Shown: positions 20,990-58,768 of the stretch, piece after piece
How positions within the stretch are numbered: the first letter of the stretch is position 1
Layout of the letters: each line of letters begins with the position of its first letter
Assembly (NCBI GenBank): GCA_009787085.1
Contig: WRGR01000045.1
Coordinates: 64,075-128,074 of the forward strand
Length of the DNA: 64,000 bases
Source: Actinomycetes bacterium
GTDB lineage: Bacteria > Actinomycetota > Coriobacteriia > Coriobacteriales > UBA8131
Reading direction: 5' to 3'
Notes under the pieces: model-generated
Seen by the model: the letters and a program-made list of their open reading frames with translations, nothing else
Database searches by the model: none
What the model was told of the DNA's origin: nothing
Program-made: the position numbers and the translations under genes

Positions 20990-22909
20990 TTATCGTATTG
21001 TCTCAAACAATGAGGCATCAGTATGTGGTAAAAACAACGCAGCGCTATATTGATCCATATAACCCAGTTCAGTGGATAGATCCAAATAGGTCATCCGGTG
21101 GGCAACCTCGAAAAGAAGCTGCCGATGCCGTGCCGAAATCAATGCCATATGAGCACCACTAACCGAAGTGTTGCCAATGAAATGCACTTTGTCATGGATC
21201 AATTTCGGCAACAAACCGATAGCCATGGCATCGTCACTGTCCAGATAGCGGCCAAAACCGCCGGCAATCATCATCCCGGAAAGATCCTCAAATCCCAGCC
21301 CGACGTTTTGCAGAAGTAGATACATGGCAGAGAAAATCGCTGCTTTGGCGCGGATGATGTTTTGGATATCGTTCTCAGAAACCGCCACCCGCATATTCTC
21401 AGCGGGCTCAATTACATAGGTGGCGCTACGGCCATTGATCTCAATGGCCTTGCAAGGACGTTCGCGCTCCAACTGGCCAGCAAAGTCAATCCAGCCGCTA
21501 CGCAGCAGGTTGGCCACCAATGAGATCATGCCAGAGCCGCAGATGCCTTTAGGGGTTTGACCACCGATCACCGAATAAGTAGCCTCACCAGTCTCCGGGT
21601 CCACCGACACCCGCTCGATGGCACCCAAGGATGCTCGCATGCCCTGGTTGATGCCACCGCCCTCAAAAGCCGGTCCGGCCGAACAGGCGCATCCCATCAG
21701 AAAGTCACCATTGCCTAAGACCAGCTCGCCATTGGTACCGATATCCAAGAACAGATAGATATCGTCAGTGTTTTTAGAGAGGTCGGTGCAGAGTAGACCG
21801 GAGATGATGTCGCCACCCAGATAACTGCCTACCGAAGGCACGATCAATATCGGTGCCGCCGGGCAGATGTCAATACCCAAGTCCGCAGCAGTATACAGTG
21901 GCACCTCATAGACTGTTGGCACATAGGGATCGAGGCGAATGTATTCCGGTGGTACCCCCAACAGCAAATGCACCATGGTTGTGTTGGCAGCAACGGTCAT
22001 GTCATAGATACGCGCCGCCTGACCGCCAACTTCCTCCAACAATTCTTGAAGCAAATGATTGATGGTCTTAACAACCTTACTGCGCAGCTCTTCTAGACGA
22101 TCAGGTTTTTGAGCATAGTTGATACGGCTGATCACATCTAGGCCACATGCGATCTGGCCGTTGTAGTCTGTTTTCGATGCCACTATCCGTCCAGAAGTCA
22201 AATCGACCAGCTGTAGAGCCACTGTAGTGGTGCCGATATCCAAGGCAATGCCGAGACGCGCCGGAGCAGAAGCCTCATCAGAGGCTGATTTGGCCGGCAG
22301 CACGTCCACCACCCGAACCAAGGAACCCACAATGTGATAAGCAACTCGCAGTGCCTCATCTTCCCGAATCACTTCCGGAAGATCGCGCAAGAGCGCCAGC
22401 GGCAAATCAACATCCAACGAGCTGCCACTATCTAGGGCAGAGTCCAACGCCCCTCGCAAAGCAATAACAAAGCGGTCGTAGTCCGACCGACCGTCGCCGG
22501 CAACCGGCTGGACGGGCGTGATCTCAATCAAGCCAACCAAGGGCTGCAGATCGTCTTTGCTAGGCAAAAGTGCCGGGTCAACCAACATAATGTCTTCTGA
22601 TTGCTCGGAGAATACGCCTTTTTCGTTCTCTACATTAGAGAGCAAACGAACACGCACTTGCGTTGGATCGCTGAGCAGTGTCTTGCAAGCCAGCGCATAG
22701 CCTTCATCCAACATGTCCTTTTCCAGAAGGGGGTTATCCTCGCGGATAACCCCTCCTGAAAGCACCTGAACGATGCACTTCTTGCATATGCCCTTGCCAC
22801 CGCAAGGTATTTCCACCGCTAATCCTGCTTTGCGCGCCGCATCGAGAATGCTCTCGTTTACTTCGGCTTCAACCGTTACTCCGCTCGGCAAGAATGTAAC
22901 CGATGGCAC
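20990..22909 (-). CDS. acsV: Reductive activator of the corrinoid Fe-S protein (RACo/AcsV-like)
   Basis: N-terminal 2Fe-2S ferredoxin module (VEIPCGGKGICKKC) plus an ASKHA-type ATPase body (LGIALDIGTTTVALQ, FLDIGTNGELV). 639 aa, as in RACo. Confidence 0.85.
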   Translation of the reverse strand: MPSVTFLPSGVTVEAEVNESILDAARKAGLAVEIPCGGKGICKKCIVQVLSGGVIREDNPLLEKDMLDEGYALACKTLLSDPTQVRVRLLSNVENEKGVFSEQSEDIMLVDPALLPSKDDLQPLVGLIEITPVQPVAGDGRSDYDRFVIALRGALDSALDSGSSLDVDLPLALLRDLPEVIREDEALRVAYHIVGSLVRVVDVLPAKSASDEASAPARLGIALDIGTTTVALQLVDLTSGRIVASKTDYNGQIACGLDVISRINYAQKPDRLEELRSKVVKTINHLLQELLEEVGGQAARIYDMTVAANTTMVHLLLGVPPEYIRLDPYVPTVYEVPLYTAADLGIDICPAAPILIVPSVGSYLGGDIISGLLCTDLSKNTDDIYLFLDIGTNGELVLGNGDFLMGCACSAGPAFEGGGINQGMRASLGAIERVSVDPETGEATYSVIGGQTPKGICGSGMISLVANLLRSGWIDFAGQLERERPCKAIEINGRSATYVIEPAENMRVAVSENDIQNIIRAKAAIFSAMYLLLQNVGLGFEDLSGMMIAGGFGRYLDSDDAMAIGLLPKLIHDKVHFIGNTSVSGAHMALISARHRQLLFEVAHRMTYLDLSTELGYMDQYSAALFLPHTDASLFETIR

Positions 22910-22939: not shown

Positions 22940-24265
22940 TTACTTGGAGAGCACTGCCTTGACATAACTCTCAATGTCGCCGGCCTCTTGTGGGCCGATC
23001 AGCACTTTCCAGCCAGGCATAGCCTCTTCCAGCTCACCGCTGATCTGCGCAACATAGCCAGGGATGATGATCTCCCGTGTCTTGACTTGACCCTCCAAGT
23101 CAAAGGCTTGAGCGGCCTTGCCGATTTGCGCACCACCGAACTTACCGGCTGCCCAAGCAGTGAGAACTGACATGCCCTCACATTCTGGCAGCAGCAACCA
23201 AGCGCTAAGGCCGGCATTCTCGATTTCACCAGAAACGATGAAGTAGGTCAGCGAGAAGTTGGTGGTCACGAAGACCGGTGAATTCTCATCCGGATCCCCG
23301 ATCGGATAGACCTTCGGCTCTACCTGAATCGGCTTCTGCGGATCAGTGAAGATGTTCTGACGCAGGGTCATCAGGCAGACCAGCTGGGCAAGATCAAAGG
23401 TGGGCAGCACGACAACGCCACCGTACTTGTCAATCTCCAAGTTGGCCAGCATTGTGTCTTGCAGTATGTCACCACTGTCAATGAAGGTCAGCGTGGGATA
23501 GCCAACATCCTTGTTGCCGTCTTTCAACGCCGTACGGCGAATGATGGTGTTGAATTGCAGCCGCTGGGCAGCAGTTTTCCCACCAAGGTCAAGCAACAGG
23601 TTACCAAAACCGTCGGCCTTGAACTTTTTGGCCAAGTTGATAACATCGTCCAAACTGTCGCCGCTGACAGCCATGGTCAAACCATTGGCTTCTGCCAAGC
23701 CAAGCATCTGCGGTGCATTAGCAGCATTGACTCCGGCCAGGATGCTTTTGGTGTCCTTGACGGCAGCTGCTGCTGCCTCAGCAGCATTGGGGTTAGCGGC
23801 ATTGATAATAACCGCCTTGCCAGTGACTTCGGCAGCCTTTTTGACCAAGGCTGCAAAGGCATTGTCGTCGTCGGATTTCTGGGTGACAGCGATCGCCTCG
23901 ATGAGCAGCAGCTCACCAACCCGAATCAGCTCATAGTCCTTGACTGCTTGGATGGTTTTTTCCGCATCCGGGTCGTTGTCGTTGACGTTCACCGCAATGA
24001 TCGTTTGGTTGATGAAGGTCTTATCGTGACGATAAAGAACAGTCTCGCCACCAATCTTGAAATCGCCGACCTCGATCGTCTTTACTGGCGGCTCACTATC
24101 GGCACCGAGAATCTCCTTGGCCTCATCGGAGGCGTAAGGGCACTCCGCCAGACTGGCTTTCTTAGAAGCCAGCTTCATCGCGAAAGCAAGGCAGGTGTCA
24201 GAACCGCACTCCTTGCAGTTCGTTTTGGGCAACAGCTTTTGTATTTGAAGTCCACTTAATGCCAT
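22940..24265 (-). CDS. acsC: Corrinoid iron-sulfur protein large subunit
   Basis: N-terminal Fe-S motif LPKTNCKECGSDTCLAFAMKLA. The ATG at 24265 lies 8 nt after AGGAGG. The longer 24328 start would overlap the upstream gene. Confidence 0.9.
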   Translation of the reverse strand: MALSGLQIQKLLPKTNCKECGSDTCLAFAMKLASKKASLAECPYASDEAKEILGADSEPPVKTIEVGDFKIGGETVLYRHDKTFINQTIIAVNVNDNDPDAEKTIQAVKDYELIRVGELLLIEAIAVTQKSDDDNAFAALVKKAAEVTGKAVIINAANPNAAEAAAAAVKDTKSILAGVNAANAPQMLGLAEANGLTMAVSGDSLDDVINLAKKFKADGFGNLLLDLGGKTAAQRLQFNTIIRRTALKDGNKDVGYPTLTFIDSGDILQDTMLANLEIDKYGGVVVLPTFDLAQLVCLMTLRQNIFTDPQKPIQVEPKVYPIGDPDENSPVFVTTNFSLTYFIVSGEIENAGLSAWLLLPECEGMSVLTAWAAGKFGGAQIGKAAQAFDLEGQVKTREIIIPGYVAQISGELEEAMPGWKVLIGPQEAGDIESYVKAVLSK

Positions 24266-41028: not shown

Positions 41029-42771
41029 ATGCATTCTCGCTTCCGCGTAGTTGTTGCCTTGTTCATGAGCCTGCTGCTGATAGGTTTTTCGCCCACGTCT
41101 TATGCTGCTGGCAATGGATCCGTGCCTAACCCAGCCGATGCCAACAGCAGCCCGTCTGACGCTGCCAGTGTTGCTGCAGCCCCGACAGGCACCGTCTCGA
41201 ATGGTGCCATGACCAACCCGGCCGATGCCCCTACAGATGCCAGCGCTGGCGGCACTGCGGGTGCCACTACTGATGAGCCGACACCTGAACCTGATCCAAC
41301 GCCAACTCCCACCCCGGTTCCAACACCAACACCAACACCAACGCCAACACCCACTCCACAGCCCACACCCAAACCGACCCCAGAGCCAATGCCCGCCCCA
41401 GAGCCTGCACCGATGCTGGAGCAGATACTCCCCGGCAGCATCTACAGCATTGTCTCAAACAGCAACGCCGGCCTTTGTGTGACCATCTCAGGCGGCTTAC
41501 GCAAAACCGGCACTGAAGCGGTGGCATCAGTATTCGCAGACGAGCTGTCGCAGAAGTTCATGGCCGTGAAGACCGGCAGCGACACAGTCGCCTTCCAAGC
41601 CATCCACTCCGGGCATTACTTGTCAATCATCAACGGCAAGGTGGTGCAGCGAAACGGCTCTGTCGGCCCCGGTGCCGCCCAGAATTTCAAGCTGCTTCGC
41701 GCTGAGGGCGGCACATTGTTATTTAACGCCGCCAGCAACTGCTACCTAAGTGTTTCGGCATCTGGCAGACTGGTGCTTTCCCAGTCTGCCAGCGACAGCA
41801 AAAACCTCTTCAGCCTGTGCAAAGTCAATGTGCTAGACTCCGGGCATTATCGTTTTTACACGCCGAACAAGGGCTTTATCAGCATCAAGTCGGCCTCTAA
41901 GAAAAGTGGTGGCAAAGCGGTGTTGGCCAAAAGCAGCACAAGTGCCGCCCAAATCTGGACAGCCAGTGTCTCGGCTTCAGCAGACACCATGAGATTGGCC
42001 AACTATCAGTCGGTGTTAAGCCTGTCTTTGAACGGCGGCTCTACCGCAAACGGCACAGCCTTGGTACAGACGGCCTACAAAAGCCAACAAAGCCAGCTTT
42101 TCTCTCTGCTGCCAGCAGGCGGCGGTTGGTTTGTGCTGAAGAGCAATCTCGGTGTCTATGTCACGGCATCAAGCGGCAAGGTCGGTGCCTACCTAAAAAC
42201 CACTACCAACAAAAACAAAGCCTTGAGGTTGCGTTTCCAGAGCAAAGACTATAAACTGCCGGGAGCAAAAAGGGACTATCGCCAAGGTTTGATCCATGAC
42301 TACAAGCCTTGGGAAGACCAGCGCTATATCGTCTTGCATGACACTGAGGGACTAGGCACCCCGGCATCGGTGCTCAACTGGTGGTCGCGTCCCAAAAACC
42401 CCGGGGTGGCAACACATTTCGTCATCGGTCGTGATGGCAGCGTCTTGCAAGCCGTACCTTTGGACAACGTCGCCTATCATGCTGGCAGTGGCGTACCCAA
42501 GCTCTACAGCACCTTTAAGACACCGTATGGCATGAACTACCACTCCATCGGCATTGAGATGATCCATGTGGGACGCGACCAGTCACACCCCTATACCAAA
42601 GCACAGCTACAGGCGCTTGACCGGGTAATCGCCTATATCGACGGCTATTACGGCAAAAAGTGTACGATCATCGACCATAAAGCCTGGGCAATCGGCAACT
42701 CCGACACCTCGCCGGAATTCGCTAGGTACCTGAAAAACTACAAGAAGTACCGCAGCTATAAGAATCCCTAG
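41029..42771 (+). CDS. Secreted N-acetylmuramoyl-L-alanine amidase with a PT-rich linker and lectin-like repeats
   Basis: Signal peptide ([26 protein letters not shown]), a (PT)n linker, beta-trefoil-like repeats with QxW-like motifs, and a C-terminal Amidase_2/PGRP domain ([28 protein letters not shown]). Confidence 0.8.
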
Positions 42772-43017
42772 GGAAGCGCCGCTCCAACACCCAAACCCCA
42801 GTCATTGCGGGCCCAGGGACGGCAATTTTTCCCTTGGTCAGCAGGGTGGACGTGGTGCCGTAGTGGGCGTGCCGCAGTGGGCCTTGATGCCTCTGGCGGG
42901 AACCTGTGCGCCCGCCTCGGACAGGGCGGCCGCCCCGACCGGGCAACCGGTCAAGGCGCCCAGACGGGCATCCCAGCTCGGCCAGCCAGCTCGGCCAGCC
43001 AGCCTTGCCCGGCCGAC

Positions 43018-48016: not shown

Positions 48017-48133
48017 GAATGCCGAGAGCAACCGACCCGTTTTCATTGCAAAGTGCAGACGATAGGTTACCACGAAACCAAGGCGCTGTCTGCACTGAAG
48101 CCCGAAAAGGCGATCCACGATTGATCGGCATTT
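48017..48133. repeat. Possible divergent member of the TIR repeat family
   Basis: The ends GAATGCCGA and TCGGCATTT are inverted repeats related to AGATGCCGA. It shares the internal TCATTGC block with the 51140 copy and has an internal stem GTGCAGAC...GTCTGCAC. Confidence 0.35.
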
Positions 48134-48135
48134 AC

Positions 48136-48990
48136 CTAACCCCGCCGTGGCGCCAGACGGGCGTTGGTCTCTAGCCAGCCTTCGACAGTGCCTACGTCAT
48201 AGCCTTCTTCAGCATCGATGACCAAGGCATACATCTCCTCTTCGGCCAACAGCGCCACCATCGCGTCAGTAAGCTGGATCTCACCGCCAGCACCCGGTTT
48301 GGTTTCAGCCAAAAGCTCCATGATCCGCGGCGAGAACAGGTAGCGCCCGAATATCGCCAGGCGGCTGGGAGCAGCTTCTGGGCTGGGCTTCTCCACCAGC
48401 TGCTCTACCTGCCAAACGCCTTCCGTCGCCTGTAGCGGGCAACCACCAATAATGCCATAGCGACCGACTTCCTCGGCCGGCACCTCGACCACGGCTATCA
48501 CGTTGGCTTGCCGATGGGCTTCGGAGATGGCCTTCATCCGGGGCAACAGCTGTGCATCGGGTATCAAGGCATCTCCGAGCAGCACGTAAAAGGGCTCAGG
48601 TGTTGGGCTACCCGAGCCGCTCGGATCACTCGGGCTGCCCAACACCGCCCCGCTGGCCGAGAGTACTGCGTGCCCCAATCCCAAAGGCGCAGACTGGTAG
48701 ACAAAGCCCACGGGCATCTTGCCAACCGCCTCCACCGCTTGGGCATAATCGTGCTTGCCAGCTGCCAGCAATTGGGCGACCAGCTCCGGGTCAGGCGAAA
48801 AGTGCCGTTCAATGGCCGGTTTTGCCCGATTGGTAATCACCAGCACCTCGTCGGAGCCGGCCACCAAAGCCTCTTCCACCACATATTGGATCGCCGGCTT
48901 GTCCAACACTGGCAGCATTTCTTTGGGAACCGCCTTGGTGGCTGGCAAAAAGCGAGTTCCAAGGCCGGCGGCAGGAATTAGTGCTTTCAT
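48136..48990 (-). CDS. galU: UTP--glucose-1-phosphate uridylyltransferase
   Basis: MKALIPAAGLGTRFLPATKAVPKEMLPVLDKPAIQYVVEE. Confidence 0.9.
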   Translation of the reverse strand: MKALIPAAGLGTRFLPATKAVPKEMLPVLDKPAIQYVVEEALVAGSDEVLVITNRAKPAIERHFSPDPELVAQLLAAGKHDYAQAVEAVGKMPVGFVYQSAPLGLGHAVLSASGAVLGSPSDPSGSGSPTPEPFYVLLGDALIPDAQLLPRMKAISEAHRQANVIAVVEVPAEEVGRYGIIGGCPLQATEGVWQVEQLVEKPSPEAAPSRLAIFGRYLFSPRIMELLAETKPGAGGEIQLTDAMVALLAEEEMYALVIDAEEGYDVGTVEGWLETNARLAPRRG

Positions 48991-49306
48991 GGGTTTGGTC
49001 TCCTTAATTCCAAGCAGCAGGGCGCCAGCCCTCCTGTTTGAATGGTATATCCAGCTAATAATCTTAACTTTTCACACTGCGTATCAAGACAGTATCTGTC
49101 ATAATAGCGTAAGAGGAAAAACCAGTGTGGCAAGTCCTATATAACAACTGTCCTCCTACATGTCCTCCGGGGATTCCCGAGAGGACGCATAGGCTGCAGC
49201 AGGTACCCCCAATCCTGTACGCCCCCTGTGGCCTATGTGTTCTCTCGGGAATTTAGGAAAACACCGTTTTAATCATGTTACGTCATTTGGAGAATCCGGA
49301 GAACGA

Positions 49307-51085
49307 ATGAAAACAAGTGGGTCAATCCAGAACATTTCCATTTCCAACCCGAACGGCCCTCGAATCGATAGTGTTCATTTTGGAACAGACGGCTGGCGGG
49401 CAATTCTGGACGAGGACTTCAACCCCTGCTCTGTGGCTAGGGTAGCCGATGCCTGCGCTCGGGCATTCTCCCGTCAGCTAGACGACTGGGCGGCCAACGC
49501 TGCATCTGGGAGAACCGCCACTGCTGTCGACGATATCAGCGGCGCCGTTGCTGCTGCTGCCAACGGTGCCAGCAGCGCCATTGCTGCTGCCAACATTACC
49601 CTCAACGCATTGGCCACGTCTAGACGAACGGGGCAAACGGAGCAACAACCGGCCTTGGTTATCGGCTATGACTGCCGTCGGGAGGCCGGCAAATATGCAG
49701 CCTTGGTTGCTGCCGTAGTCGCCGCTCACGGGTTTCAGGCCATAGTCTCCGACCGCTATTGTCCCACACCGGCACTCTGTTGGTCGATTGCCCATCTTCC
49801 TCAAGCCATCGGCGGCATCATGCTCACGTCTTCCCATAACCCTGCTGAATACCTAGGTATCAAGCTGCGCATGGCCGACGGTGGTGCCTCGCCTAAGAGT
49901 TTCACTGACGAAGTGGAATCATTGCTCTCAGACGATCTGCCAGACTGCTACCCCCATGCCTTGGCGGCCTTTGCGGCAGCGGTCAACGCCACCCCGGAGA
50001 ACCCGGCATCAGCACTGAGCTTGGCACCGGAGCTTTGTTTCGCCAACCTGATGGGCGACTATCTGGAGGCACTGGTGGCCAGCGTCGATACCGAGATGAT
50101 CCGTCAGGCAGAGCTGCAGGTGGTGCTCGACCCGCTGTTCGGTGCTGGGCGCGGCTACCAAGCACAAGTGCTGGCCAACATGGGGGTACAGGTATCCGAG
50201 GTCAATGGTGCTGCCGACCCCAGCTTCCAAGGCTTGCATCCAGAGCCGATACTGCCTTGGGTAAGCACCGGCCAAGCCGAAGTGGTGTGCTTGGGCTATG
50301 ATGCCTGCCTGATCACCGACGGTGATGCCGACCGCATCGGTGCCATTGATGAGCATGGCAACTACGTTACCTCACACCGCATCATGGCCTTGCTCATCTC
50401 GCATCTAGCCGAGGACCGCGGCCAGCGCGGTCGGGTGGTGCGCACCTCGGCCGGCTCGAACCTCTTGATGCGTCAGTGCCAACGCCTAGGACTAGAGCTG
50501 GCCACCCGTCCGATCGGCTTCAAGTGGATCTATGCGGAAATGCTAAAAGGCGACGTACTGATCGGCGGTGAGGAAAGCGGCGGTATCGGCTTTCCGACGC
50601 ATGTTCGCGAACGCGACGGACTGCTGGCCGGGCTGCTGCTGGTAGAAATGATGGCGCAGCGGCAAAAATCGCTCTCAGCGCTGGTCGAAGAGTTGCTGGC
50701 CGAACTGGGCTGCTTGGAGTATGCCCGCCGCGATCTGCGTTTAAGCGAAAGCCAAAAAACGCAATTTGTAGAGAAACACCTGGCAGTGGCAAGCAGCGAA
50801 GCTCCCGGCGGCCTATCTGCTGGAGACATCTCCCCCTGCCCAGCGGCCGTCGGCGGCAATGCCCTGCCCTCATTCTACCAACCACTCTTTGCGGCACTCC
50901 ATGAAGAGCTGATAGATGTGGATCAAAGTGACGGCATCATGTTCCGCTTCGCCTCCGATGCTTGGCTGCTGGTACGCACTTCCGGCACTGAGCCGCTGGT
51001 CAGGGTGTATTCCGAAGCCAGCGACAAAAGCCGGGTGGATGAGCTGTTGGACATCGGCTGCGCACTGGCCGAGGGCGAGATTTAA
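49307..51085 (+). CDS. Phosphoglucomutase/phosphomannomutase-family phosphohexomutase
   Basis: FGTDGWRA, catalytic loop TSSHNPAEYLGIK and Mg loop DGDADR. The ATG at 49307 is preferred over the ORF-track start at 49235. There is an Ala-rich insertion near the N-terminus. Confidence 0.85.
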   Translation: MKTSGSIQNISISNPNGPRIDSVHFGTDGWRAILDEDFNPCSVARVADACARAFSRQLDDWAANAASGRTATAVDDISGAVAAAANGASSAIAAANITLNALATSRRTGQTEQQPALVIGYDCRREAGKYAALVAAVVAAHGFQAIVSDRYCPTPALCWSIAHLPQAIGGIMLTSSHNPAEYLGIKLRMADGGASPKSFTDEVESLLSDDLPDCYPHALAAFAAAVNATPENPASALSLAPELCFANLMGDYLEALVASVDTEMIRQAELQVVLDPLFGAGRGYQAQVLANMGVQVSEVNGAADPSFQGLHPEPILPWVSTGQAEVVCLGYDACLITDGDADRIGAIDEHGNYVTSHRIMALLISHLAEDRGQRGRVVRTSAGSNLLMRQCQRLGLELATRPIGFKWIYAEMLKGDVLIGGEESGGIGFPTHVRERDGLLAGLLLVEMMAQRQKSLSALVEELLAELGCLEYARRDLRLSESQKTQFVEKHLAVASSEAPGGLSAGDISPCPAAVGGNALPSFYQPLFAALHEELIDVDQSDGIMFRFASDAWLLVRTSGTEPLVRVYSEASDKSRVDELLDIGCALAEGEI

Positions 51086-51139
51086 GGAGGGGCCGCTCAG
51101 CTGGCAAGCTGGCATAGCGGCATTGATCGCTGTCTAGGA

Positions 51140-51264
51140 AGATGCCGATTAATCCCAAACCGCAGTCATTGCCGACTTGACCGCTAATCTTTCTCCTGAT
51201 CAGCAGGGCTAAATATTGTGACTCGGGAGCCCTGTGGGACGGAATTGTGAGTCGATCGGCGACT
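51140..51264 (+). repeat. Structured TIR repeat element, copy E1
   Basis: Aligns by eye over its whole length with the reverse complement of 58061-58186. Shared blocks are AGATGCCGATTAA, GTCATTGCCGACTTGACCG, CCTGATCAGCAGGG and CGGGAGCC. The right terminus is degenerate (GTCGATCGGCGACT). Confidence 0.7.
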
Positions 51265-51266
51265 CT

Positions 51267-51542
51267 TTAAACCTTGTACATAAAGTTGAAGAGGTCCTCA
51301 CGCTGCAACACCACCTGCATGTTCAAGGCGGCGGCATCAGCCGCCAAAAGCTCCTGTAACCCGTCAAAGCTGGTAATCTCTTCGTCCACCGTGACCAGCA
51401 TGGTCATTGAGAACATCTGGCCGAGGATGGTTTGCTGGATGTCATCGATGTTCGCCCCCGCCTGGTAAAGGGTGGTGGCTATCGTCGCCACCACACCCTT
51501 GCGGTCACGTCCGAGCACACTCAATACTGCCTTGGTCAACAT
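51267..51542 (-). CDS. ACT-domain protein (UPF0237-like)
   Basis: 91 aa: VLSVLGRDRKGVVATIATTLYQAGANIDDIQQTILGQMFSMTMLV. Confidence 0.8.
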   Translation of the reverse strand: MLTKAVLSVLGRDRKGVVATIATTLYQAGANIDDIQQTILGQMFSMTMLVTVDEEITSFDGLQELLAADAAALNMQVVLQREDLFNFMYKV

Positions 51543-51554
51543 AAACGCTCCTTG

Positions 51555-51681
51555 GAAGCCGACGGTCGTTACAAGTAGGCTCTTAAGCCCCAGTCAAGCC
51601 TCTCTATTATAGGGAAAGGGCTTGGCGAAACGCTTGGGGCAGCCCAGTTGCCAAGATGGCGTGGCCTGACTAATCGGCATC
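51555..51681 (-). repeat. Possible degenerate copy (E3) of the TIR repeat element
   Basis: The right end TAATCGGCATC (51671-51681) matches the element terminus exactly. The left end GAAGCCGACGG is only weakly similar. Interior similarity is limited (GCCCCA..., TTGCC...). Confidence 0.35.
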
Positions 51682-51698
51682 GCCGCCCTAAACCGATT

Positions 51699-51726
51699 TT
51701 GGCTTTCTTGGGGATGGATGTATAAT
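51699..51726 (+). promoter_or_regulatory. Candidate sigma-70-type promoter for the LCP gene
   Basis: TTGGCT (51699-51704), a 16 bp spacer, then TATAAT (51721-51726). It lies about 40 nt upstream of the GTG start, which follows AAAGGAG. Confidence 0.4.
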
Positions 51727-51767
51727 CGGATGGACACGTACCGAATCGGACAAAGGAGCTTTATCTG

Positions 51768-52886
51768 GTGGGTGAGATATACCGCCGTCCCAATAAAGAC
51801 CAATGTGGAGCAGAGGCTCCGCGCTCCGATGCCATGCAGGCCAACAGCCGCAGGGCTTGGGAAGAACGCTTGCAGGCCGAAGGCATGCCCAACGGCATGC
51901 CCGGTCGGAAGCGGCTTGGCCGCCGCCGTGCCAAAAAGATTGCCGTTGCTATCGGGGTCTGTCTGCTGGTGGCAATTGTCGGCCTTGGTGCTTGGCTGTT
52001 TTACTTCAACAACCAAATAAACGCCAACCTGCAGGACTTTGCCGCTGGTGATCTGGAGGCTTTACGGGGAATACTACAGGCACCAGCAAGCGCTGACAGC
52101 CCCTACTACGTGTTGGTGGTCGGAACAGACTCACGCGGGTCCAGCGACCCCGAGCGCTCGGACACCATCATGCTCTGCCGCATCGACCCGGTGAAGAAGC
52201 AGACCTCAATACTGTCGATTCCCCGTGATGTCAAAATCGAGCTGCCCGGCTATGGTGCCCAGAAGATCAACGCTGCCATGGTCTATGGCGGACCAGACGG
52301 GTCTGGCGGGCCAGCCGGAGTGGTCATGGCGGTATCGAATTTCGTGGGTGTGCCTATTTCGCACTATGTGCAAATAGATTTTTCCGGCTTCCGGAAAATC
52401 ATCGATGCCCTCGGCGGTGTCACGGTGACCGTCCCGGCCTACACCTATTACGACGGCATCTCGCTGCAACCCGGCAAGCAAAAACTCAACGGCAAACAGG
52501 CCTTGGTCTTCGCCCGGTGCCGCAAGACCTATGCCACTGGCGACTTTCAGCGTGCCGCCAACCAGCGCCAGTTGATGAAAGTAGTGGCCCAGGAGATCTT
52601 GGGATCGCCGCCGACCGAGATGCCCGGCCTGATCACCAGCATCTCCGAGTGTGTACGCACCGACCTAACTGCCAGCGGCATTCTGCAGATAGCAGACAGG
52701 ATGCGGGGCATGAACACCGCCAGCGACATGTCCGCCGGCCAAGTGCCCTGCACCGCTAGCTATATTTCCGGAGTCTCCTACGATCTCCCCGATGCCGACA
52801 AGTGGCCAGCAGTGAGACGGAAGTTCATCGACGGCGTGGTACCCTTCGTCTCCGACAGCGAAAAACAGCCAGGAGTCGACGAGTAG
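51768..52886 (+). CDS. LytR-CpsA-Psr (LCP) family cell-envelope transferase
   Basis: N-terminal TM anchor, then YYVLVVGTDSRG, RSDTIMLCRIDP, SIPRDV. Confidence 0.88.
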   Translation: MGEIYRRPNKDQCGAEAPRSDAMQANSRRAWEERLQAEGMPNGMPGRKRLGRRRAKKIAVAIGVCLLVAIVGLGAWLFYFNNQINANLQDFAAGDLEALRGILQAPASADSPYYVLVVGTDSRGSSDPERSDTIMLCRIDPVKKQTSILSIPRDVKIELPGYGAQKINAAMVYGGPDGSGGPAGVVMAVSNFVGVPISHYVQIDFSGFRKIIDALGGVTVTVPAYTYYDGISLQPGKQKLNGKQALVFARCRKTYATGDFQRAANQRQLMKVVAQEILGSPPTEMPGLITSISECVRTDLTASGILQIADRMRGMNTASDMSAGQVPCTASYISGVSYDLPDADKWPAVRRKFIDGVVPFVSDSEKQPGVDE

Positions 52887-52955
52887 GGAACGAGGGCGGC
52901 ATGCCTCGCCACAATATCACTTGAGGATCTCCTTCGGCATTCCCACTAGAATCAC

Positions 52956-53276
52956 TTACTTAGGCAGCAGCAAAGTGCGCGCCAAAGTCAGCCGCTGCTG
53001 CTCGCCGCCGGAAAGCAGCTTGGCTTTGTGCTTGGCTTTATCCTTGGCTTTGTGCTTGGCTTTGTGCTGCAGCCCTAGCTGCTCGAGCCGCTCGTTGATG
53101 GCCAAGTCAGCCTCTGCGAACCCGTTGTTGCCGGTCAGCACGAGGCATAGGAGCAAGTTGTCGTAGACGGTGAAATCTTCGAACAGGTTGTGATCCTGGA
53201 AAATGTAGCCCATGGCCTCCCGCAGCAGCCTCTTCTTCTCCTCTTCGTTGAGGGTATTTGTCGGCATCCTCGGCAT
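52956..53276 (-). pseudogene. Decayed ABC-transporter ATPase fragment (Q-loop to signature motif only)
   Basis: It encodes ...GYIFQDHNLF...LSGGEQQRLTLARTLLLPK then a stop. There is no Walker A upstream, where the sequence is AT-rich non-coding. Past the stop the frame reads VILVGMPKEILK instead of the expected Walker B ILLADEPT. It carries a (H/D)KAK x4 insertion just before LSGG. Confidence 0.7.
53019..53066 (-). repeat. 12 bp x4 tandem repeat inside the ABC fragment
   Basis: CTTGGCTTTGTG / CTTGGCTTTATC / CTTGGCTTTGTG / CTTGGCTTTGTG, encoding HKAK-HKAK-DKAK-HKAK on the minus strand. Confidence 0.9.
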
Positions 53277-53386
53277 TGTCCAAGCTCAACATATATTTTT
53301 ACCAATTCTACATATTTCTGAAAAATGGATACTTATTAAGTTATCAACTACTTCATCAGTCTTGGTTTAACGTTACCCCCAGCGGC

Positions 53387-54478
53387 TCATTCAGATCTTA
53401 CGGCTACCCGCAGACTAGCTGCAACCAGCAACAGACCGGCCACTACCAACGCTGCCACCAAAAGTACCGTCACACCCGTTAGGTCAGTGCCGCTAACAGC
53501 AGATACTGCAACGACTGGCACCACAGGTGAGCACCAAGCCGGCAGCGCCGACTCGGCCCAAAGCCCGCCACCGATGGTCATGCTCAGCAAGAACAGCGGT
53601 AGGAATAGCCAAGTCGTAGCATGGTGGCCAAACAGCTGTGCGGCCAAGCTGCCCAAAAGCGACACGTAGAGCACCACTGCCAGAAAACCAAGGCCGCACC
53701 AAAGGTCAGGCGCAGCGCCTAGCAACAGGGCCATGAAGGCCAGATAGAGCAGGATCACCACCGTCCAGACCAGCCAGACCACCGTCAAAGAAATCACAAG
53801 TTGACGCAGGTAGGCACGGCGGCCATGAACCAGCAGACGCTTATCCTGGTGGCTGGGAACTGTCAGGGCCGCATGCAAAAAGGCCAACAGCAACAGCAGG
53901 GCAGATACGCCATGCACCGGAGCCGGGCTGCCAGCGGGTATCGGAGTACCCGGGCCATCGTAGGCCACGTCCAACAGGTCACCGGTTGGAGGCAATGTGA
54001 CTTGGTTGTCTGCCGCGCTAAGGCTACCCAAAGCCACCTGAAGGGCATGTTTTGCCCGCATCTGCAATATCACATCAGCGATCTGCTCCCGAGCGAAGGC
54101 ATAGTTGGTGATCCCCGGAGCCAAACGATAGACCACCGGTAAGCGCTTGCCTTGGTCAAGGGCGTTGCCAAAGCCATCGGGAATAACCAGCAACCCTTGA
54201 ACAACATTTTGGGCAAACACCACCTCCGAGCTAAGGGAGTTGTCGACGCTGACAACATCTAGGCCGGAAATCGTGCTCAGGCCGTCTACCAGTTCAGAGG
54301 CCTGCGCAGAGCCATCGATATTTTGAACCGCTATGCTCAACGGCGGGTTGCGGTCGGCCAGCACATAGGAACTGGCCTGAGCCAACAGCAGTTGAAAAAC
54401 CACGACCACCACAAGCAACACCAAGAGGTGGCGCTGGGACTTCAGCTTCAACCAAAACTGCCCGGCCATCAGCACCAT
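53387..54478 (-). CDS. ABC-2-type transporter permease
   Basis: 363 aa with an N-terminal TM helix, a large extracytoplasmic loop and a C-terminal cluster of TM helices. It is the last intact gene of the exporter operon. Confidence 0.7.
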   Translation of the reverse strand: MVLMAGQFWLKLKSQRHLLVLLVVVVVFQLLLAQASSYVLADRNPPLSIAVQNIDGSAQASELVDGLSTISGLDVVSVDNSLSSEVVFAQNVVQGLLVIPDGFGNALDQGKRLPVVYRLAPGITNYAFAREQIADVILQMRAKHALQVALGSLSAADNQVTLPPTGDLLDVAYDGPGTPIPAGSPAPVHGVSALLLLLAFLHAALTVPSHQDKRLLVHGRRAYLRQLVISLTVVWLVWTVVILLYLAFMALLLGAAPDLWCGLGFLAVVLYVSLLGSLAAQLFGHHATTWLFLPLFLLSMTIGGGLWAESALPAWCSPVVPVVAVSAVSGTDLTGVTVLLVAALVVAGLLLVAASLRVAVRSE

Positions 54479-54578
54479 CGCCTAATGAAGCGCTGATTCA
54501 ATGCAAAAGGCCTGTTATTGCAGATCAGATCCGCAATGACTGTAGTTTGGCCATGATTGGCCAACATTTTGCTAGCAC

Positions 54579-55772
54579 TCACAAGGACCGCCGCCACTCC
54601 AAGTAGCCCACTGCACAGGCCACGGCCATGGGTACTAAAAACAATAGCAGTTGCATGATGTCCAGGGGGGCGCCGAGGCTCCAAACGGAGAGTTGGTTGG
54701 AAAGCCAACTGGGGTTAAAGATGCGGATATTGGACTGCATCAAAGCGGTCGGATAAAAACCGCCGCCAGCAAAAAGCAAAAAGAAAAGAACAGCCAAACA
54801 GCCGATCAGCGTCCGGGTCGTTGCCACTTGAAGCTGCTGGCGAAAGCCACTGAACATCAAGTAAACCGGGCAAAGCAGCAAAGACAGCAAGACCGCAGAA
54901 AGCATAAGGCGTAAAATGTTCGGCCCTTCACCAACCAGTTGCAATATCAGCCCCAAGACCAGCCCCAAAACCAAGGCAATACTGGCGGACAGCAAAAGCT
55001 GGGAGGCGATCAAGTGACGGTAGCGAACGCGCTTGGTGTAAAGGTGGCGAAAATAGCCGCCAGCATATTGCCGCGCCGCAACCACCGCAACATAAAAACA
55101 GGCGATAGAAACCGTCAAGAAGAGGATCAAGGTCAGGGCTTGGGCATAATAGGGGGACACCGTTTGCGGAACATCAACATTGCTGGTGCGGGTAAAGGCC
55201 TCACCGATCAGCTTCATGTCAAAGCTGTCGGTCGCATCACTTAACTCTGCATAGCTGGAGAAAAAACTCTGAGCCCCCTGCCTAAACAGCAGCGAATAGC
55301 CCTGTAGCTGATCCAGTGTGTCTACGGCACTGTTGGCCACCGTGTAAATCACCGGACCCAGAAACGGATCATCTGACTTCACGGTGATGGTGGCATGGCC
55401 GCCATATACCAAGACATCCAGTGTATCGGCGGGCAAATAAATAGCTGCGTCCACCTGATGGGTAGCCAGTAAAGTCTCAGCCGCATCAGTACTACACATT
55501 TGAACGCTTTTAACAAATTTTATAGTACTTAATTGACTGTTTAAATTGCGAACCAGCGCATCATTGATATTGCCATCACCGTAAACGACGGCCAAAGACA
55601 CTTGGGGGACATCCTGTGCACTGAACAACTGCTTGGGCAAGCTGAGCAAAACGACAGCGATCAATGCCAGAAGCACGGCCAACAAGACCGCCACAAAACG
55701 TAGGGTAGCTTTCAAATTTGCCAAATAGAGCGCCACGGTCTTCTGAAGGCCGCCCAGCACAAAGCTCAACAC
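54579..55772 (-). CDS. ABC-2-type transporter permease
   Basis: 397 aa with the same topology as its neighbour. The start overlaps the ATPase stop. Confidence 0.7.
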   Translation of the reverse strand: MLSFVLGGLQKTVALYLANLKATLRFVAVLLAVLLALIAVVLLSLPKQLFSAQDVPQVSLAVVYGDGNINDALVRNLNSQLSTIKFVKSVQMCSTDAAETLLATHQVDAAIYLPADTLDVLVYGGHATITVKSDDPFLGPVIYTVANSAVDTLDQLQGYSLLFRQGAQSFFSSYAELSDATDSFDMKLIGEAFTRTSNVDVPQTVSPYYAQALTLILFLTVSIACFYVAVVAARQYAGGYFRHLYTKRVRYRHLIASQLLLSASIALVLGLVLGLILQLVGEGPNILRLMLSAVLLSLLLCPVYLMFSGFRQQLQVATTRTLIGCLAVLFFLLFAGGGFYPTALMQSNIRIFNPSWLSNQLSVWSLGAPLDIMQLLLFLVPMAVACAVGYLEWRRSL

Positions 55773-56383
55773 AAAGTAACCTCGGCTTTTGGCAGTGCCA
55801 AAATGTGCTCACAAATGCCCGAGAAGTCCTCGCGGTCATGTGAAACCATGACAATAGCCGCACCCCTCTCCTTCTCCGCATAAAGCACATGCCGCGCCTG
55901 TTCGCGTGAGTCCTCATCAAGGAAGGCAAAGACCTCATCGAGCAAGAGTATTTGCGGACTAGAAAGCAAAGCAGCAGCAATGGCACACCTAGCGCGCATC
56001 CCTGAAGAGCCTTTGGAGAAGACCTTCTTCATAAAAGGCAGTATCTCCAGCCGTGCTGCCACCAGCTGCACTTGCTGACGAGCCTGCTTGCCGCGCAGGC
56101 CGCTGAGGTAGGCTTCCAGCAACAAGTTGTCGGAAAAGCTCAACGACTCCTGAAAGCCACCGTGTTGCATCACGTAGCCGATGCTGCCGTTGACGCTGAC
56201 GCTGCCCGCCGTCGGCCGCTCCAAGCCGGCGATGATATCCAGTAGGCTGGTTTTGCCGGTGCCGTTACGGCCGACAATGCCCAAGCCCTCCCCAGCTTGG
56301 AGCTGGCAAGTAACCGGGGCGAATAAATCTTCGCCCCGGCGCTTTTTGATAGCGTTCAAACTGACTATTGCCACTGTTGGCAC
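55766..56383 (-). CDS. ABC transporter ATP-binding protein
   Basis: Walker A GRNGTGKTS, a degenerate signature SSGMRARCAIA, Walker B ILLLDE and an H-loop VSHD. Confidence 0.85.
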   Translation of the reverse strand: MPTVAIVSLNAIKKRRGEDLFAPVTCQLQAGEGLGIVGRNGTGKTSLLDIIAGLERPTAGSVSVNGSIGYVMQHGGFQESLSFSDNLLLEAYLSGLRGKQARQQVQLVAARLEILPFMKKVFSKGSSGMRARCAIAAALLSSPQILLLDEVFAFLDEDSREQARHVLYAEKERGAAIVMVSHDREDFSGICEHILALPKAEVTLC

Positions 56384-56409
56384 ACTCTCACGAAACCCGG
56401 GATAACCCT

Positions 56410-57891
56410 TCAGCTAGCCTTGGCATAGGCAGAAAGCGAATCCTGATTAGATGAGAACAGGTTGCCCCCATAGGGCGACTCCGGGGCATCCATGATCTGC
56501 TGAAGCTTGGAGTCGCCATCCAAGTGGGTGCTGTTAATGCCAGTAATCTGAACATTGCAGACGATGGGAACCCCTTCCGATGTAAAGCTCATCTTGAGCT
56601 TGGTGAGAATATCGGCATCAACAGTGAAGCCGATGTCGATGTTGCCTAGGGTTGATTGCTGAAGTGAGCTTGTCGCTTGTACGCAATAAGATCGCAGCTG
56701 ATCAGCGGCATCCGCATAGCTGCTGTCTTTGTCGCCAACACTTTTCGCATAGTCGCCAAGTGCCTGTATCATGGCCTGCGGATTGATCGTACCCTGATAG
56801 TCAGTGGCACTGCCGTTAACTTTAGTGCTGGCATTGCTCATGAACTTGTCTTGAACATCCTGCTTATTCACTTCCACAGTCATGAAATCACTGATGATTT
56901 TAGCCAGCTTGTCAGCGTTTTCGCTGTCCACACCCAAGCCGTACATTGGATTAGAGCTGAGGTCACTACCAGCGGCATCACTGAGCTTCTGGGACATCTG
57001 CTCGATGTAGGCCCTGTCCAACTTGCCGTTGTTGACTATCTTGTTCAGGTCAATGCCGATATTGTATTCTTCGTTGATAGCAACATTGGCATAGTCGATG
57101 ACACCGCTTTGCTTCGCGACAACTTGGATGCCTGATCCGCCGGAAGCCGAGCTGCTGGCACTACTAGCCTGATAGACAATCAATGTGTTATTACGCAAGA
57201 CCACACCATAATCACCAACATAGCCCCAGATGGTCGAGCTGGCGAGATCTTTGCCAAGCTCCCATTTAGCAGTCAGGCTAGTACCCATTTCCGCTGTGAC
57301 AGTAGCGCTACTGGTATTGAAGAGGAGGTTCTCCGTACCCTTGGACATGGCCTCTAAAGCAGTTTGCTGCTTCGGCTTGACTAGGCCGGGAAGCACTAAG
57401 GCCACCACGACTATCGCAGCAACAAGCAAGACAGCGATGCCGCCGATGATGAAGGGCAGAGCGCTACGCTTCTTCGGAGCCTCTTGAGCTGTTTCAGGGA
57501 CTGCCGATACTCCGGCCGGGTATGCTGCCGGTGGCACTGGCGGCTGCTGGTCGATGCCGGGCTGCGGAACTGGCGGAACCTGTGGCTGCAGCACTACCGG
57601 TTGGGCTACCGACTGCGGTTCGACCACCGGTTGCGGAGCCGGCGGCTGCGCAGCAACGGCCTCGGTTGGCACTGGGGGCACTACGGGCGGCTCAACGGGC
57701 ATTGCCGGAGGCGGCGCAGCTGGTTCCGGAACTGCCGACTGACTGATGTCGGGCACTGCAGCCGCAGCGGCCACGGAAGCGGCGGCAGCGGCCTGATTGG
57801 CAGCATCTTGCTGATCAGCACCGCAATAGGGACAAAATCTCGAAGTGTCGGGGACTTCTTTGTCACACTTCCAACATTGCATGACACCCAT
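56410..57891 (-). CDS. Zinc-ribbon membrane protein with a Pro-rich linker and an extracellular domain
   Basis: CWKCDKEVPDTSRFCPYCG, a Pro/Ala/Val-rich segment, one TM helix (LPFIIGGIAVLLVAAIVVVALVLPGL) and a ~330 aa C-terminal domain. It is the first gene of the ABC operon. Confidence 0.7.
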   Translation of the reverse strand: MGVMQCWKCDKEVPDTSRFCPYCGADQQDAANQAAAAASVAAAAAVPDISQSAVPEPAAPPPAMPVEPPVVPPVPTEAVAAQPPAPQPVVEPQSVAQPVVLQPQVPPVPQPGIDQQPPVPPAAYPAGVSAVPETAQEAPKKRSALPFIIGGIAVLLVAAIVVVALVLPGLVKPKQQTALEAMSKGTENLLFNTSSATVTAEMGTSLTAKWELGKDLASSTIWGYVGDYGVVLRNNTLIVYQASSASSSASGGSGIQVVAKQSGVIDYANVAINEEYNIGIDLNKIVNNGKLDRAYIEQMSQKLSDAAGSDLSSNPMYGLGVDSENADKLAKIISDFMTVEVNKQDVQDKFMSNASTKVNGSATDYQGTINPQAMIQALGDYAKSVGDKDSSYADAADQLRSYCVQATSSLQQSTLGNIDIGFTVDADILTKLKMSFTSEGVPIVCNVQITGINSTHLDGDSKLQQIMDAPESPYGGNLFSSNQDSLSAYAKAS

Positions 57892-58060
57892 CCTTTCTTG
57901 TTAGTTGTTCACTGCTAGTATGATCCTTTATATTGTAACCTTGAAAACCATCAACCAAGCAGCCCAAATTGAGATTTTGCTGTATATCGCTATGAAATTA
58001 TTTCGGATGCCCTCACCAAGAATCACAGCACTGAACAGAGTCTGAAAAAACACCCTGGGG

Positions 58061-58186
58061 AGATGCCGATTAGCCCCAAACTCCGCCCCACACGGCTCCC
58101 GGGCCGCAATCTTTAACCCTGCTGATCAGGGGGAAGATTGCCGGTCAAGTCGGCAATGACCGCAGTTTATGAGTTAATCGGCATCT
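58061..58186 (-). repeat. Structured TIR repeat element, copy E2 (best preserved)
   Basis: Perfect 12 bp terminal inverted repeats AGATGCCGATTA / TAATCGGCATCT. Nested internal stems are GCAATCTT...AAGATTGC enclosing CCCTG-ctgat-CAGGG, and CGGTCA...TGACCG. It is the reverse complement of E1. Confidence 0.75.
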
Positions 58187-58294
58187 CTCTAGCTGTATTA
58201 TGATTGTTTGCAATAGATGTTGTAGCGGCTTAGGTGGCGGCCGGCGTGAGTGAAGCCCATGGGCAGCCAGAGCAATAGGAAGGGAGCTAGCAAA

Positions 58295-58768
58295 ATGAAT
58301 GTGCATTACTATGAGTACCCGGTTGGGGTTGTCGGCATAGAGGCAACAGGCGATGCGATAACGGGCATTTTCTTCGGTAACCGCAAAAAGGCAGATGACG
58401 TTATTGGAGAGACAAGCGTCATCAAAAGCGCGGCGACACAGCTTGACGAGTACTTCGCTGGGAACCGTAAGGGGTTTGACTTGCCGCTTTGCGCTCACGG
58501 GACAAGTTTTCAGCAATCCGTCTGGAAAGCCTTGTGCTCCATCCCCTATGGCGAAACTAGGAGTTACGGAGAAGTGGCACGCGCTGTGGGCAACGCGAAT
58601 GCCTTCCGTGCCGTAGGGGCGGCGAACCACTGCAACCCGATTGCGATTGTGGTTCCCTGCCATCGCGTTGTTCGCCAAGGGGGCAGTCTAGGCGGATACG
58701 CGGGCGGCTTGGACATAAAAAAATACTTGCTCGAATTGGAGAAGTCATGCTCTTTTTCTCTTGGCTAA
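58295..58768 (+). CDS. ogt: Methylated-DNA--protein-cysteine methyltransferase
   Basis: Active site PCHRVV and the helix-turn-wing region YGEVARAVGNANAFRAVGAANHCNPIAIVVPCHRVV. The ATG at 58295 follows GGAAGGGAG. Confidence 0.9.
   Translation: MNVHYYEYPVGVVGIEATGDAITGIFFGNRKKADDVIGETSVIKSAATQLDEYFAGNRKGFDLPLCAHGTSFQQSVWKALCSIPYGETRSYGEVARAVGNANAFRAVGAANHCNPIAIVVPCHRVVRQGGSLGGYAGGLDIKKYLLELEKSCSFSLG

Follow-up and report, generated by a model that had tools for sequence, protein, structure and literature searches.

A structured element at window positions 58055-58192 in a Coriobacteriia genome belongs to an abundant, decayed repeat family that has no genes, with an inverted-repeat shell and a hairpin pair inside

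The DNA at positions 58055-58192 of the 64,000-nucleotide stretch analysed here (the window) lies between two divergent gene starts, is rich in hairpins and is bounded by inverted repeats, and it raises the question of whether such a sequence is a regulatory site for one of its neighbours, a structured RNA or a member of a dispersed repeat family. The original prediction favoured a dispersed MITE- or REP-like repeat over a gene-specific regulator and offered a small RNA family as an alternative. Our analysis supports the first of these and refines it, in that the element resembles a MITE on the outside and encloses a REP-type hairpin pair. It is a worn-out member of an abundant repeat family that has no genes of its own and consists of an inverted-repeat shell with two copies of a hairpin repeat inside. 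The explanation that we consider likely is that a decayed, non-autonomous MITE shell carries as cargo a pair of hairpins of the CGTC-REP / Ssn-motif type, both being known kinds of selfish DNA. The genome is a MAG of 1.83 Mb in 46 contigs (57% G+C, 93.6% complete), and a matching 402-kb ENA contig was identical to the window. The parts of the element are as follows.

58055-58192, + strand: composite element of subfamily A1, flanking tetranucleotides CTGG (degenerate CTAG) and CTAG included
58059-58073, + strand: left shell terminal inverted repeat GGAGATGCCGATTAG, placed by family alignment and compared with the E. coli IS5 ends
58084-58111, + strand: left REP hairpin with mutated head and outer stem, CGCCCCACACGG..GCCGCAATC replacing CGTCATTGCGG..GCCGCAATC
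58117-58131, + strand: central spacer hairpin CCCTG-CTGAT-CAGGG, separating both REP units, placed by alignment and folding
58136-58160, - strand: right REP hairpin (CGTC-type / Ssn-related motif), reading GATTGCCGGTCAAGTCGGCAATGAC on the + strand with the GTC head on the - strand
58174-58188, - strand: right shell terminal inverted repeat TTAATCGGCATCTCT, followed by CTAG at 58189-58192

The perfect 12-bp termini noted originally are both present (AGATGCCGATTA at 58061-58072 and TAATCGGCATCT at 58175-58186), and the inverted repeat reaches further out than had been noticed, from CTGG-GGAGATGCCGATTAG (58055-58073) to TTAATCGGCATCTCT-CTAG (58174-58192), with an outer stem of about 21 bp upon folding. 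The stems described earlier, GCAATCTT/AAGATTGC around CCCTG/CAGGG together with CGGTCA/TGACCG, were likewise recovered, and the right REP hairpin has an 8-bp stem starting with AT and a 5-nt loop. The fold is far more stable than those of shuffled controls, with z-scores of -5.1 as DNA and -6.1 as RNA and none of 200 shuffled sequences reaching the same stability. On one side of the element is a zinc-ribbon gene that starts at 57891 (minus strand); on the other is ogt (plus strand), the start of which would be at about 58296 on our reading of the sequence. A scan flagged no promoter-like or terminator-like site within the copy, which has no U-tract, and we saw no sign of a specific regulatory role for it.

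A local segmental duplication that left only two copies in the genome is clearly not what we found. BLAST of the genome with the 126-nt copy gave approximately 40 loci, and three rounds of iterated nhmmer gave 264 matches, which collapsed into 145 family loci (75 near full length and 70 partial) because the near-palindromic element matches both strands. Neither core hairpins nor inverted-repeat pairs were found in a shuffled genome. The copy at 58055-58192 has the highest nhmmer score of the family (107.8 bits) and is 86% identical to the family consensus, a 137-bp sequence obtained from the aligned full copies that can be written CTAG-GGAGGTGCCGATTAAcgCACAAtTCC-GTCCCACACGGCCCCCGAGCCGCAATC-TTTCACCCTGCTGATCAGGGGAAA-GATTGCCGGTCAAGCCGGCAATGAC-TGcaGTTTGGcaTTAATCGGCGCTTCC-CTAG. 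Identity to the consensus averages 74% (range 54-88%, with a transition/transversion ratio of 1.7), from which we conclude that the family is old. The copy at 58055 and others, together approximately 35 of the 75 full copies, have a left REP that is broken in the same manner, with GTCCCACACGG replacing GTCATTGCGG; these copies make up subfamily A1, and the intact form GTCATTGCGG is kept in approximately 18 of the 75.

The best-conserved part of the family is a 25-nt hairpin, GATTGCSGGTCAAGCCSGCAATGAC, which follows the pattern (N)GTC-ATTGCSGG-CTTGA-CCSGCAAT-C and, with its variable head base, can be written (N)GTCATTGCGGGCTTGACCCGCAATC. Approximately 105 copies of this core occur in the genome with up to 5 mismatches. 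Across these copies we found that: (i) the GTC of the head is essentially invariant and is preceded by C in 38 copies, A in 39, G in 20 and T in 8; (ii) the 8-bp stem ATTGCSGG/CCSGCAAT forms 80-97 Watson-Crick pairs at each position; (iii) stem positions 6 and 16 covary, with G-C in 42 copies, C-G in 42 and a non-complementary combination in about 10; (iv) the loop is TCAAG in 57 of the 105, and its variants are also 5 nt long; and (v) G-T-type mismatches (36) are about as frequent as A-C-type mismatches (34), so that nothing points to selection on one RNA strand. In this genome the tail is a C followed by TTT, and in other phyla it is CCC or CCA-like. The left arm of the element is an inverted and more diverged copy of the same hairpin, GTCATTGCGGC-CYCCGA-GCCGCAATC, with CYCCGA as a 6-nt loop. 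The interior is therefore an inverted hairpin pair with the GTC heads facing outward and a small hairpin spacer in the middle.

In the family alignment, conservation is much higher in the right REP than in the shell inverted repeats. This could mean that the REPs are younger than the shells or that they are under selection. Detection bias contributes as well, since a search by similarity preferentially retrieves copies whose cores are intact, and the cores of copies retrieved by their ends alone are often decayed.

The core is found in more than one setting within the genome. Besides the arrangement seen at 58055 (type A), there are copies in which the core is combined with the ends of the shell and a different left arm (type B), and others in which an unrelated MITE carries it between 24-bp ends, CTATGTTAAACCAGCGTTGACATG (type C; for example C37:49000, C42:23666 and C42:22277, contig and position). 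It also occurs alone and in short tandem arrays (C27:6445-6589, with a period of 33 bp). The window holds the following additional members of the family.

51134-51270, - strand: second full copy, in the opposite orientation, running from CTAG+GAAGATGCCGATTAA to GTCGATCGGCGACTCT+TTAA
51105-51137, strand not assigned: hairpin-free 'short shell' remnant CAAGCTGGCATAGCGGCATTGATCGCTGTCTAG, abutting the 51134 copy with the CTAG common to both
51554-51691, strand not assigned: decayed shell-only copy with no REP core, ends GGAAGCCGACGGTCGT and CTAATCGGCATCGCCGCCCTAA, interior resembling that of hairpin-free shells
42766-42849, + strand: truncated left half with CTAG, inverted repeat, one REP and the central hairpin
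54487-54575, + strand: short form with one REP between its two ends, in the 100-bp spacer of two same-strand genes
16939-17031, + strand: right half of a type B copy, with one REP (GATTGCGGCTCAAGGCCGCAATGAC) and the right inverted repeat

The full-length reverse-complement match to 51140-51264 that had been reported aligns at 84% identity and is the inner part of the copy at 51134-51270, in which the better-preserved of the two REPs lies at 51165-51189. Two weaker candidates had also been named. One of them, at 51554-51691, is a relative, albeit a decayed one consisting of shell only; the other, at 48017-48133, has a single convincing end (TTGATCGGCATTTACC at 48121-48136) and is unsupported as a copy. 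Two of the copies in the window overlap stop codons. The TAG (42769-42771) that ends the gene at 41029-42771 falls within the CTAG of the downstream copy at 42766, and the TTAA flanking the 51134-51270 copy contains the TAA (51267-51269, minus strand) of an ACT-domain gene (51267-51542, minus strand).

The shell has the properties of a MITE: small size, no open reading frame, many copies and terminal inverted repeats of 16-20 bp (consensus GGGARRYGCCGATYAA) with CTAG on both sides. Pairs of these inverted repeats number 61 in the genome and 0 in the shuffled control when up to 2 mismatches are allowed per end. CTAG is the most frequent flanking tetranucleotide (23 of 75 copies on the left and 26 of 75 on the right), and most of the others are transition variants of it; where the flanks are not CTAG, left and right do not consistently match. 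Tandem copies have a single CTAG in common. Given that CTAG is palindromic, the flanks fit a 4-bp target duplication and an extension of the inverted repeat equally well. The tetranucleotide occurs in the genome at 0.48 of expectation, and approximately 5% of all CTAG sites are at shell ends.

Shells without hairpins are present in the same genome in forms of about 68 bp (for example C28:30130 and C40:12231) and about 162 bp (C31:14022, C28:26441 and C22:16961). The long form also occurs in a different genus of the same family (genome G018, locus L034), where the ends and CTAG flanks are as in the shell and the interior is different. Outside its REPs, the interior of a type A copy is unlike the interiors of these empty shells, and for this reason type A is not simply a shell with an insertion.

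The original prediction could not assign the element to a named repeat family. This can now be corrected for the core hairpin, which on sequence grounds fits the superfamily known as CGTC-tagged REPs or Ssn-related motifs (PMC3733652, PMC11893778). As defined by Di Nocera, De Gregorio and Rocco in 2013, the superfamily comprises CGTC-1 to -4 and includes dRS3 of Neisseria and RPE-4/RPE-6 of Rickettsia; its members have a CGTC head (with TGTC and CCTC tolerated), an 8-9 bp stem starting A-T, T-A, a loop of 4-5 nt and a short unpaired tail with the consensus CCA, and they mostly form inverted dimers with structured spacers and 'no dedicated transposase' (PMC3733652). Chenal et al. have more recently (2025) renamed the hairpins NTS or Ssn-related motifs, with Neisseria dRS3/NTS included, and demonstrated that SsnA, a 94-aa single-domain GIY-YIG protein, binds the motifs and cuts upstream of them, on ssDNA only and on one strand only (PMC11893778). 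A homologue of Ssn is encoded by 81% of the genomes that have more than 200 motifs (PMC11893778).

The hairpins described here resemble CGTC-REPs in their GTC head, 8-bp stem starting with AT, 5-nt loop and short unpaired tail, in their occurrence mostly as inverted pairs with a structured spacer, in their mostly intergenic location downstream of genes, in having no adjacent transposase and in that an identical hairpin is found in many phyla. There is also precedent for pairs inside a larger palindrome, as every CGTC-1 dimer of Halothiobacillus neapolitanus is located within a 41-bp palindrome (PMC3733652). They differ in that C precedes GTC in only about 36% of copies, the tail is C-TTT rather than CCA, the pairs are enclosed by a shell of 16-20 bp inverted repeats with CTAG flanks, and the host is an actinobacterium (Coriobacteriia), a phylum outside the five of the 2013 list. 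Unlike most genomes rich in Ssn motifs, this one yielded no single-domain GIY-YIG gene of the Ssn type, a gene that often has the motif on its flanks. A full-text literature search with strings of the hairpin sequence matched only unrelated primers.

With regard to the shell, the closest likeness is to MITEs of the IS5 group. IS5-group elements duplicate a 4-bp YTAR/CTAG target. The shell end GGGAGGTGCCGATTAA matches the ends of E. coli IS5 (MG1655; GGAAGGTGCGAATAAG and GGAAGGTGCGAACAAG) at approximately 13-14 of 16 positions in a hand alignment with two gaps, and the family shares with IS5-group MITEs its small size, lack of coding sequence, high copy number, terminal inverted repeats, CTAG on both flanks and a subfamily structure suggestive of amplification from master copies. 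Unlike such MITEs, it has REP hairpins in its interior rather than leftover insertion-sequence DNA, and neither a parent insertion sequence nor a DDE transposase of the IS4/IS5 type was found. We infer an IS5-type origin for the shell and go no further than that because no parent was found, CTAG is palindromic and an IS630-type element inserting at the TA of CTAG would leave the same picture.

Two other classes of repeat invite comparison. Like REPINs and their RAYTs (Bertels and Rainey 2011; Nunvar 2010), the family consists of inverted REP doublets that form one long hairpin and are present in tens to hundreds of copies, but the head is GTC rather than GTAG, there is no Y1 transposase in the genome and there are additional outer inverted repeats. 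Like the Correia elements of Neisseria, the copies are 100-150 bp in length, abundant and intergenic, have inverted repeats and TA-containing insertion sites and form long hairpins, but the sequences are unrelated. Three further candidates were rejected: CRISPR-like repeats, as spacers are lacking and the tandem copies follow one another without a gap; integron attC sites, as no R'/R'' boxes are present; and 6C RNA, as there was no Rfam match.

We searched for enzymes that might have moved either part of the element. Neither RAYT (Y1 transposase, PF01797; controls were positive) nor DDE transposases of the IS4/IS5 type (PF01609 and PF13586; DDE_Tnp_1 and DDE_Tnp_1_2) were detected in the genome, and the single match to a DDE transposase in one relative (G008) is not flanked by the shell inverted repeats. 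There were no multi-copy open reading frames in the genome that would mark an insertion sequence, and no long-spaced pairs of the inverted repeat enclosing a transposase; what such pairs enclose are the open reading frames of ordinary genes. No match to the consensus was found by BLAST among the plasmids of PLSDB. A 19-mer taken from the inverted repeat had 22 single matches in JGI metagenomes, none with CTAG flanks or a partner repeat, and consequently these are most likely chance matches in coding DNA. Across our genome, its relatives, PLSDB and the JGI metagenomes, therefore, no autonomous element with these inverted repeats came to light.

A scan for the GIY-YIG domain (PF01541) gave one match each in our genome (G000), G008, G018 and G022; the sole match in our genome, at the end of contig C41, was read as UvrC. 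NCBIfam has no model specific for Ssn (cd10448). Small single-domain GIY-YIG open reading frames are present in two genomes with homogeneous cores, a sister genus (G023, where a 95-aa protein is encoded at L208 1435-1722 on the minus strand) and G067, and tblastn of the G023 protein against our genome returned nothing, not even a remnant. As no Ssn-like gene was found, the hairpins in this genome would be 'orphans', provided that the part missing from the MAG (93.6% complete) does not encode one; with 46 contigs at this completeness, a gene for a transposase or for Ssn could have escaped assembly.

Evidence that the hairpin pair can be carried by other elements comes from related genomes. Among 40 relatives, a 112-bp element is present in more than 20 nearly identical copies in the sister genus G023, where it encloses the same hairpin pair between unlike ends (GTTACTAGTCAGAC ... 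GTCTGATCAGTAAC). At least 11 of 17 copies are flanked by direct target duplications of 8-9 bp, and this element is a bona fide young MITE. The same genome also contains naked REP pairs, and in G008 the hairpin pair is enclosed by a shell of the GGGAAGGTGCTGATTA type. Within the class, the hairpin is carried by only 4 of 401 Coriobacteriia genomes, and so its distribution is patchy.

In a scan of 185,579 species, the exact 25-mer was found on at least 119 contigs. Hosts among the matches listed include Bacteroidota, Burkholderiales, Bacillota, Endomicrobia (Endomicrobium), Eggerthellaceae, Oscillospiraceae, Defluviitaleaceae and Sulfurovum, among others. Going by MAG naming schemes, many of the Bacteroidota records, Candidatus Symbiothrix included, presumably stem from termite-gut studies. 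In other phyla the 25-mers are usually in inverted pairs, either with themselves or with sisters of the same build (GTCATCCCGGGCTTGACCCGGGATCC, GTCATGCCGGACTTGATCCGGCATCC and GTCATTCCCGCGAAGGCGGGAATCC). Neighbour enrichment at the 119 loci listed revealed no recurrent neighbour gene. For the 58055 copy itself, no record of the flanking protein was found, and a search for a syntenic empty site reached only relatives whose ClpB is about 80% identical and in which synteny is lost at this place.

A scenario that would account for these observations is that the shell was once moved by a DDE transposase supplied in trans, and that two 25-nt hairpins of the CGTC-tagged REP class, inverted relative to each other, rode within it as cargo. 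As DNA, the whole unit may be able to extrude into a long hairpin or a cruciform. The mode of transposition is something that we infer: since the left REP is broken in the largest subfamily, to which the 58055 copy belongs, the family would have spread as a unit by way of its inverted repeats and not by way of the REP hairpins. At approximately 74% identity to the consensus, and with no searched transposase, RAYT or Ssn-like nuclease gene found, the family would now be a fossil.

We also considered the possibility that the roles are reversed, i.e. that the REP pair is the mobile unit, similar to a REPIN and moved by an Ssn-type GIY-YIG nuclease or a Y1 transposase, and that the shell is a palindromic landing site. 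The existence of hairpin-free shells is consistent with this idea, as are the far better conservation of the right REP relative to the shell ends, the naked REP pairs of G023, the small single-domain GIY-YIG proteins encoded by G023 and G067, where the cores are homogeneous, and the precedent of the Halothiobacillus dimers within their palindrome (PMC3733652). However, if REP pairs had inserted into pre-existing shells, the rest of a type A interior would be expected to look like that of an empty shell, and it does not. Moreover, one specific broken left REP throughout the largest subfamily implies that amplification took place after the break, our genome has neither a RAYT nor a small GIY-YIG gene, and transposition activity has not been shown for Ssn (PMC11893778). 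Taken together, we regard this possibility as unlikely.

It seems less probable still that the host has recruited the family as terminators, mRNA-stabilising 3' hairpins or insulators and that selection, rather than selfish spread, maintains it. Our figures on genomic context rest on crude ORF-based gene calls. Of the full copies, 53/75 are intergenic as compared to 12% of DNA genome-wide, and these 53 are distributed as 35 between genes of the same direction, 14 between convergent genes and 4, a depleted class, between divergent genes. The median distance from the upstream stop codon to the copy is 20 nt. We read this placement, like the random orientation noted below, as pointing to a DNA-level and not an RNA-level element. 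In favour of recruitment are the closeness to stop codons, the enrichment between same-direction and convergent genes, the very stable structures and the location downstream of genes that is reported for most REPs of both superfamilies (PMC3733652). Nevertheless, CTAG targeting would also be expected to bring copies close to stop codons: the tetranucleotide includes TAG and is seldom found within genes (0.48 of expectation genome-wide), so that targeting alone could place elements at gene ends. In addition, the 58055 copy is one of the few located between divergent gene starts, has no U-tract and was passed over by the terminator scan, copies have decayed to 54-88% identity and the core is confined to 4 of the 401 Coriobacteriia genomes.

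A structured small RNA or cis-regulatory RNA, for which the strong predicted structure (an RNA z-score of -6.1) and the one covarying stem position could be cited, is highly improbable given that copies are oriented at random with respect to flanking genes (17 in the same direction and 18 in the opposite), wobble-type mismatches are about as frequent as the A-C type, no promoter-like site was found at the 58055 copy, identical hairpins are present in several phyla in contexts unrelated to one another, the substrate of Ssn is ssDNA rather than RNA (PMC11893778), and Rfam scans found no match to the element at the gathering score over the whole window or at E <= 1 over 50900-58400. Apart from two tRNAs, these scans returned nothing.

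Returning to the MITE shell with its hairpin cargo, at least three shells are now known to carry it, two in this genome and one, with fresh 8-9 bp duplications, in the sister genus. This leads us to suggest, tentatively and as something short of an even prospect, that unrelated inverted-repeat MITEs may have picked up Ssn-related hairpin pairs repeatedly. If this is true, repeated pick-up would let 'transposase-less' hairpins multiply in genomes without an Ssn nuclease and would go some way towards explaining the spread of CGTC REPs, a question left open in 2013. That co-resident termite-gut bacteria from several phyla have an identical 25-mer would then be due to such carriers having moved horizontally. 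The hint as to mechanism is that such hairpins may travel inside ordinary MITEs and persist without Ssn, which bears on how this class of repeat proliferates.

With its 145 loci, the family accounts for much of the structured intergenic DNA of this small genome, and annotating it should prevent such palindromes from being taken for operators, terminators or small RNAs. A host from the Coriobacteriia (Actinomycetota) is a new addition to the CGTC-REP / Ssn-motif superfamily. Modestly new are the clean separability of shell and cargo, the presence of the same cargo in three unrelated shells and the orphan state of the hairpins in a genome where no Ssn nuclease was found. Finally, the ATTGCGGG-type hairpin and the small GIY-YIG proteins of G023 and G067 are a candidate nuclease-site pair for the ssDNA-cutting toolbox described in 2025.

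The REP hairpin pair of the window element (58055-58192) recurs inside a 112-bp MITE of the sister genus, G023. This MITE is present in more than 20 copies that are nearly identical to one another (loci L043-L060, e.g. L053, L050 and L045), has the termini GTTACTAGTCAGAC...GTCTGATCAGTAAC and is accompanied by target duplications of 8-9 bp; it looks to have been active recently. The genome that contains the window also holds, outside the window, a second MITE-like element (type C) whose 24-bp inverted repeats (CTATGTTAAACCAGCGTTGACATG) are unrelated to the CTAG-flanked shell and enclose just one unit of this REP hairpin. Its copies are located as follows:

C37:~48900-49080, type C copy
C42:~23570-23740, type C copy
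C42:~22180-22350, type C copy
C9:1822, type C copy
C38:51039, type C copy

The exact 25-mer of the hairpin core is common to bacteria of many phyla (at least 119 loci, L061-L179). Among the matches listed, a sizeable proportion of the records carry names suggestive of MAGs from termite gut or rumen and of symbionts of termite protists (Candidatus Symbiothrix, Endomicrobium), and Burkholderiales from freshwater and soil form a further host cluster. This grouping of hosts by habitat suggests that the 25-mer has spread horizontally in a habitat-linked manner.

The sister genus also encodes a small protein of the GIY-YIG type:

L208 (G023:C32) 1435-1722, minus strand, 95-aa single-domain GIY-YIG gene

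Inverted GTCAYCCTG...CAGGRY motifs with long loops lie on both sides of this gene (L208 1370-1800), an arrangement similar to the motif-ssnA-motif layout of Ssn, although the hairpins are of a different type from ATTGCGGG.

With regard to the shell flanks, CTAG is under-represented across the whole genome that contains the window (3284 sites, 0.48 of expectation), and approximately 175 CTAG sites per side lie in the sequence context of a shell end (CTAGGRRR or YYYCCTAG). In two cases an adjacent gene takes its stop codon from the flank, either from CTAG itself or from the variant TTAA. These are listed with an ORF that overlaps the element under study:

42766-42771, TAG stop from flanking CTAG, gene at 41029-42771
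51267-51270, minus strand, TAA stop from flanking TTAA, ACT-domain gene at 51267-51542
58145-58678, minus strand, 177-aa ORF overlapping the element's right end and ogt, the latter on the opposite strand

The 177-aa ORF had no Pfam match and is most likely spurious.

Tandem stutter of the REP hairpin was also observed (C27:6445-6589 and C23:17095-17180 in the same genome; L072, L088, L140, L154 and L155 elsewhere), and it takes two forms: the entire hairpin is present four times with a 33-bp period, or its 3' half (CCGCAATGAC plus ~9 nt) is present in two or three copies. This stutter is found again in genomes of Eggerthellaceae and Burkholderiales, and could reflect either slippage or a vestige of the mode by which the hairpin is copied.
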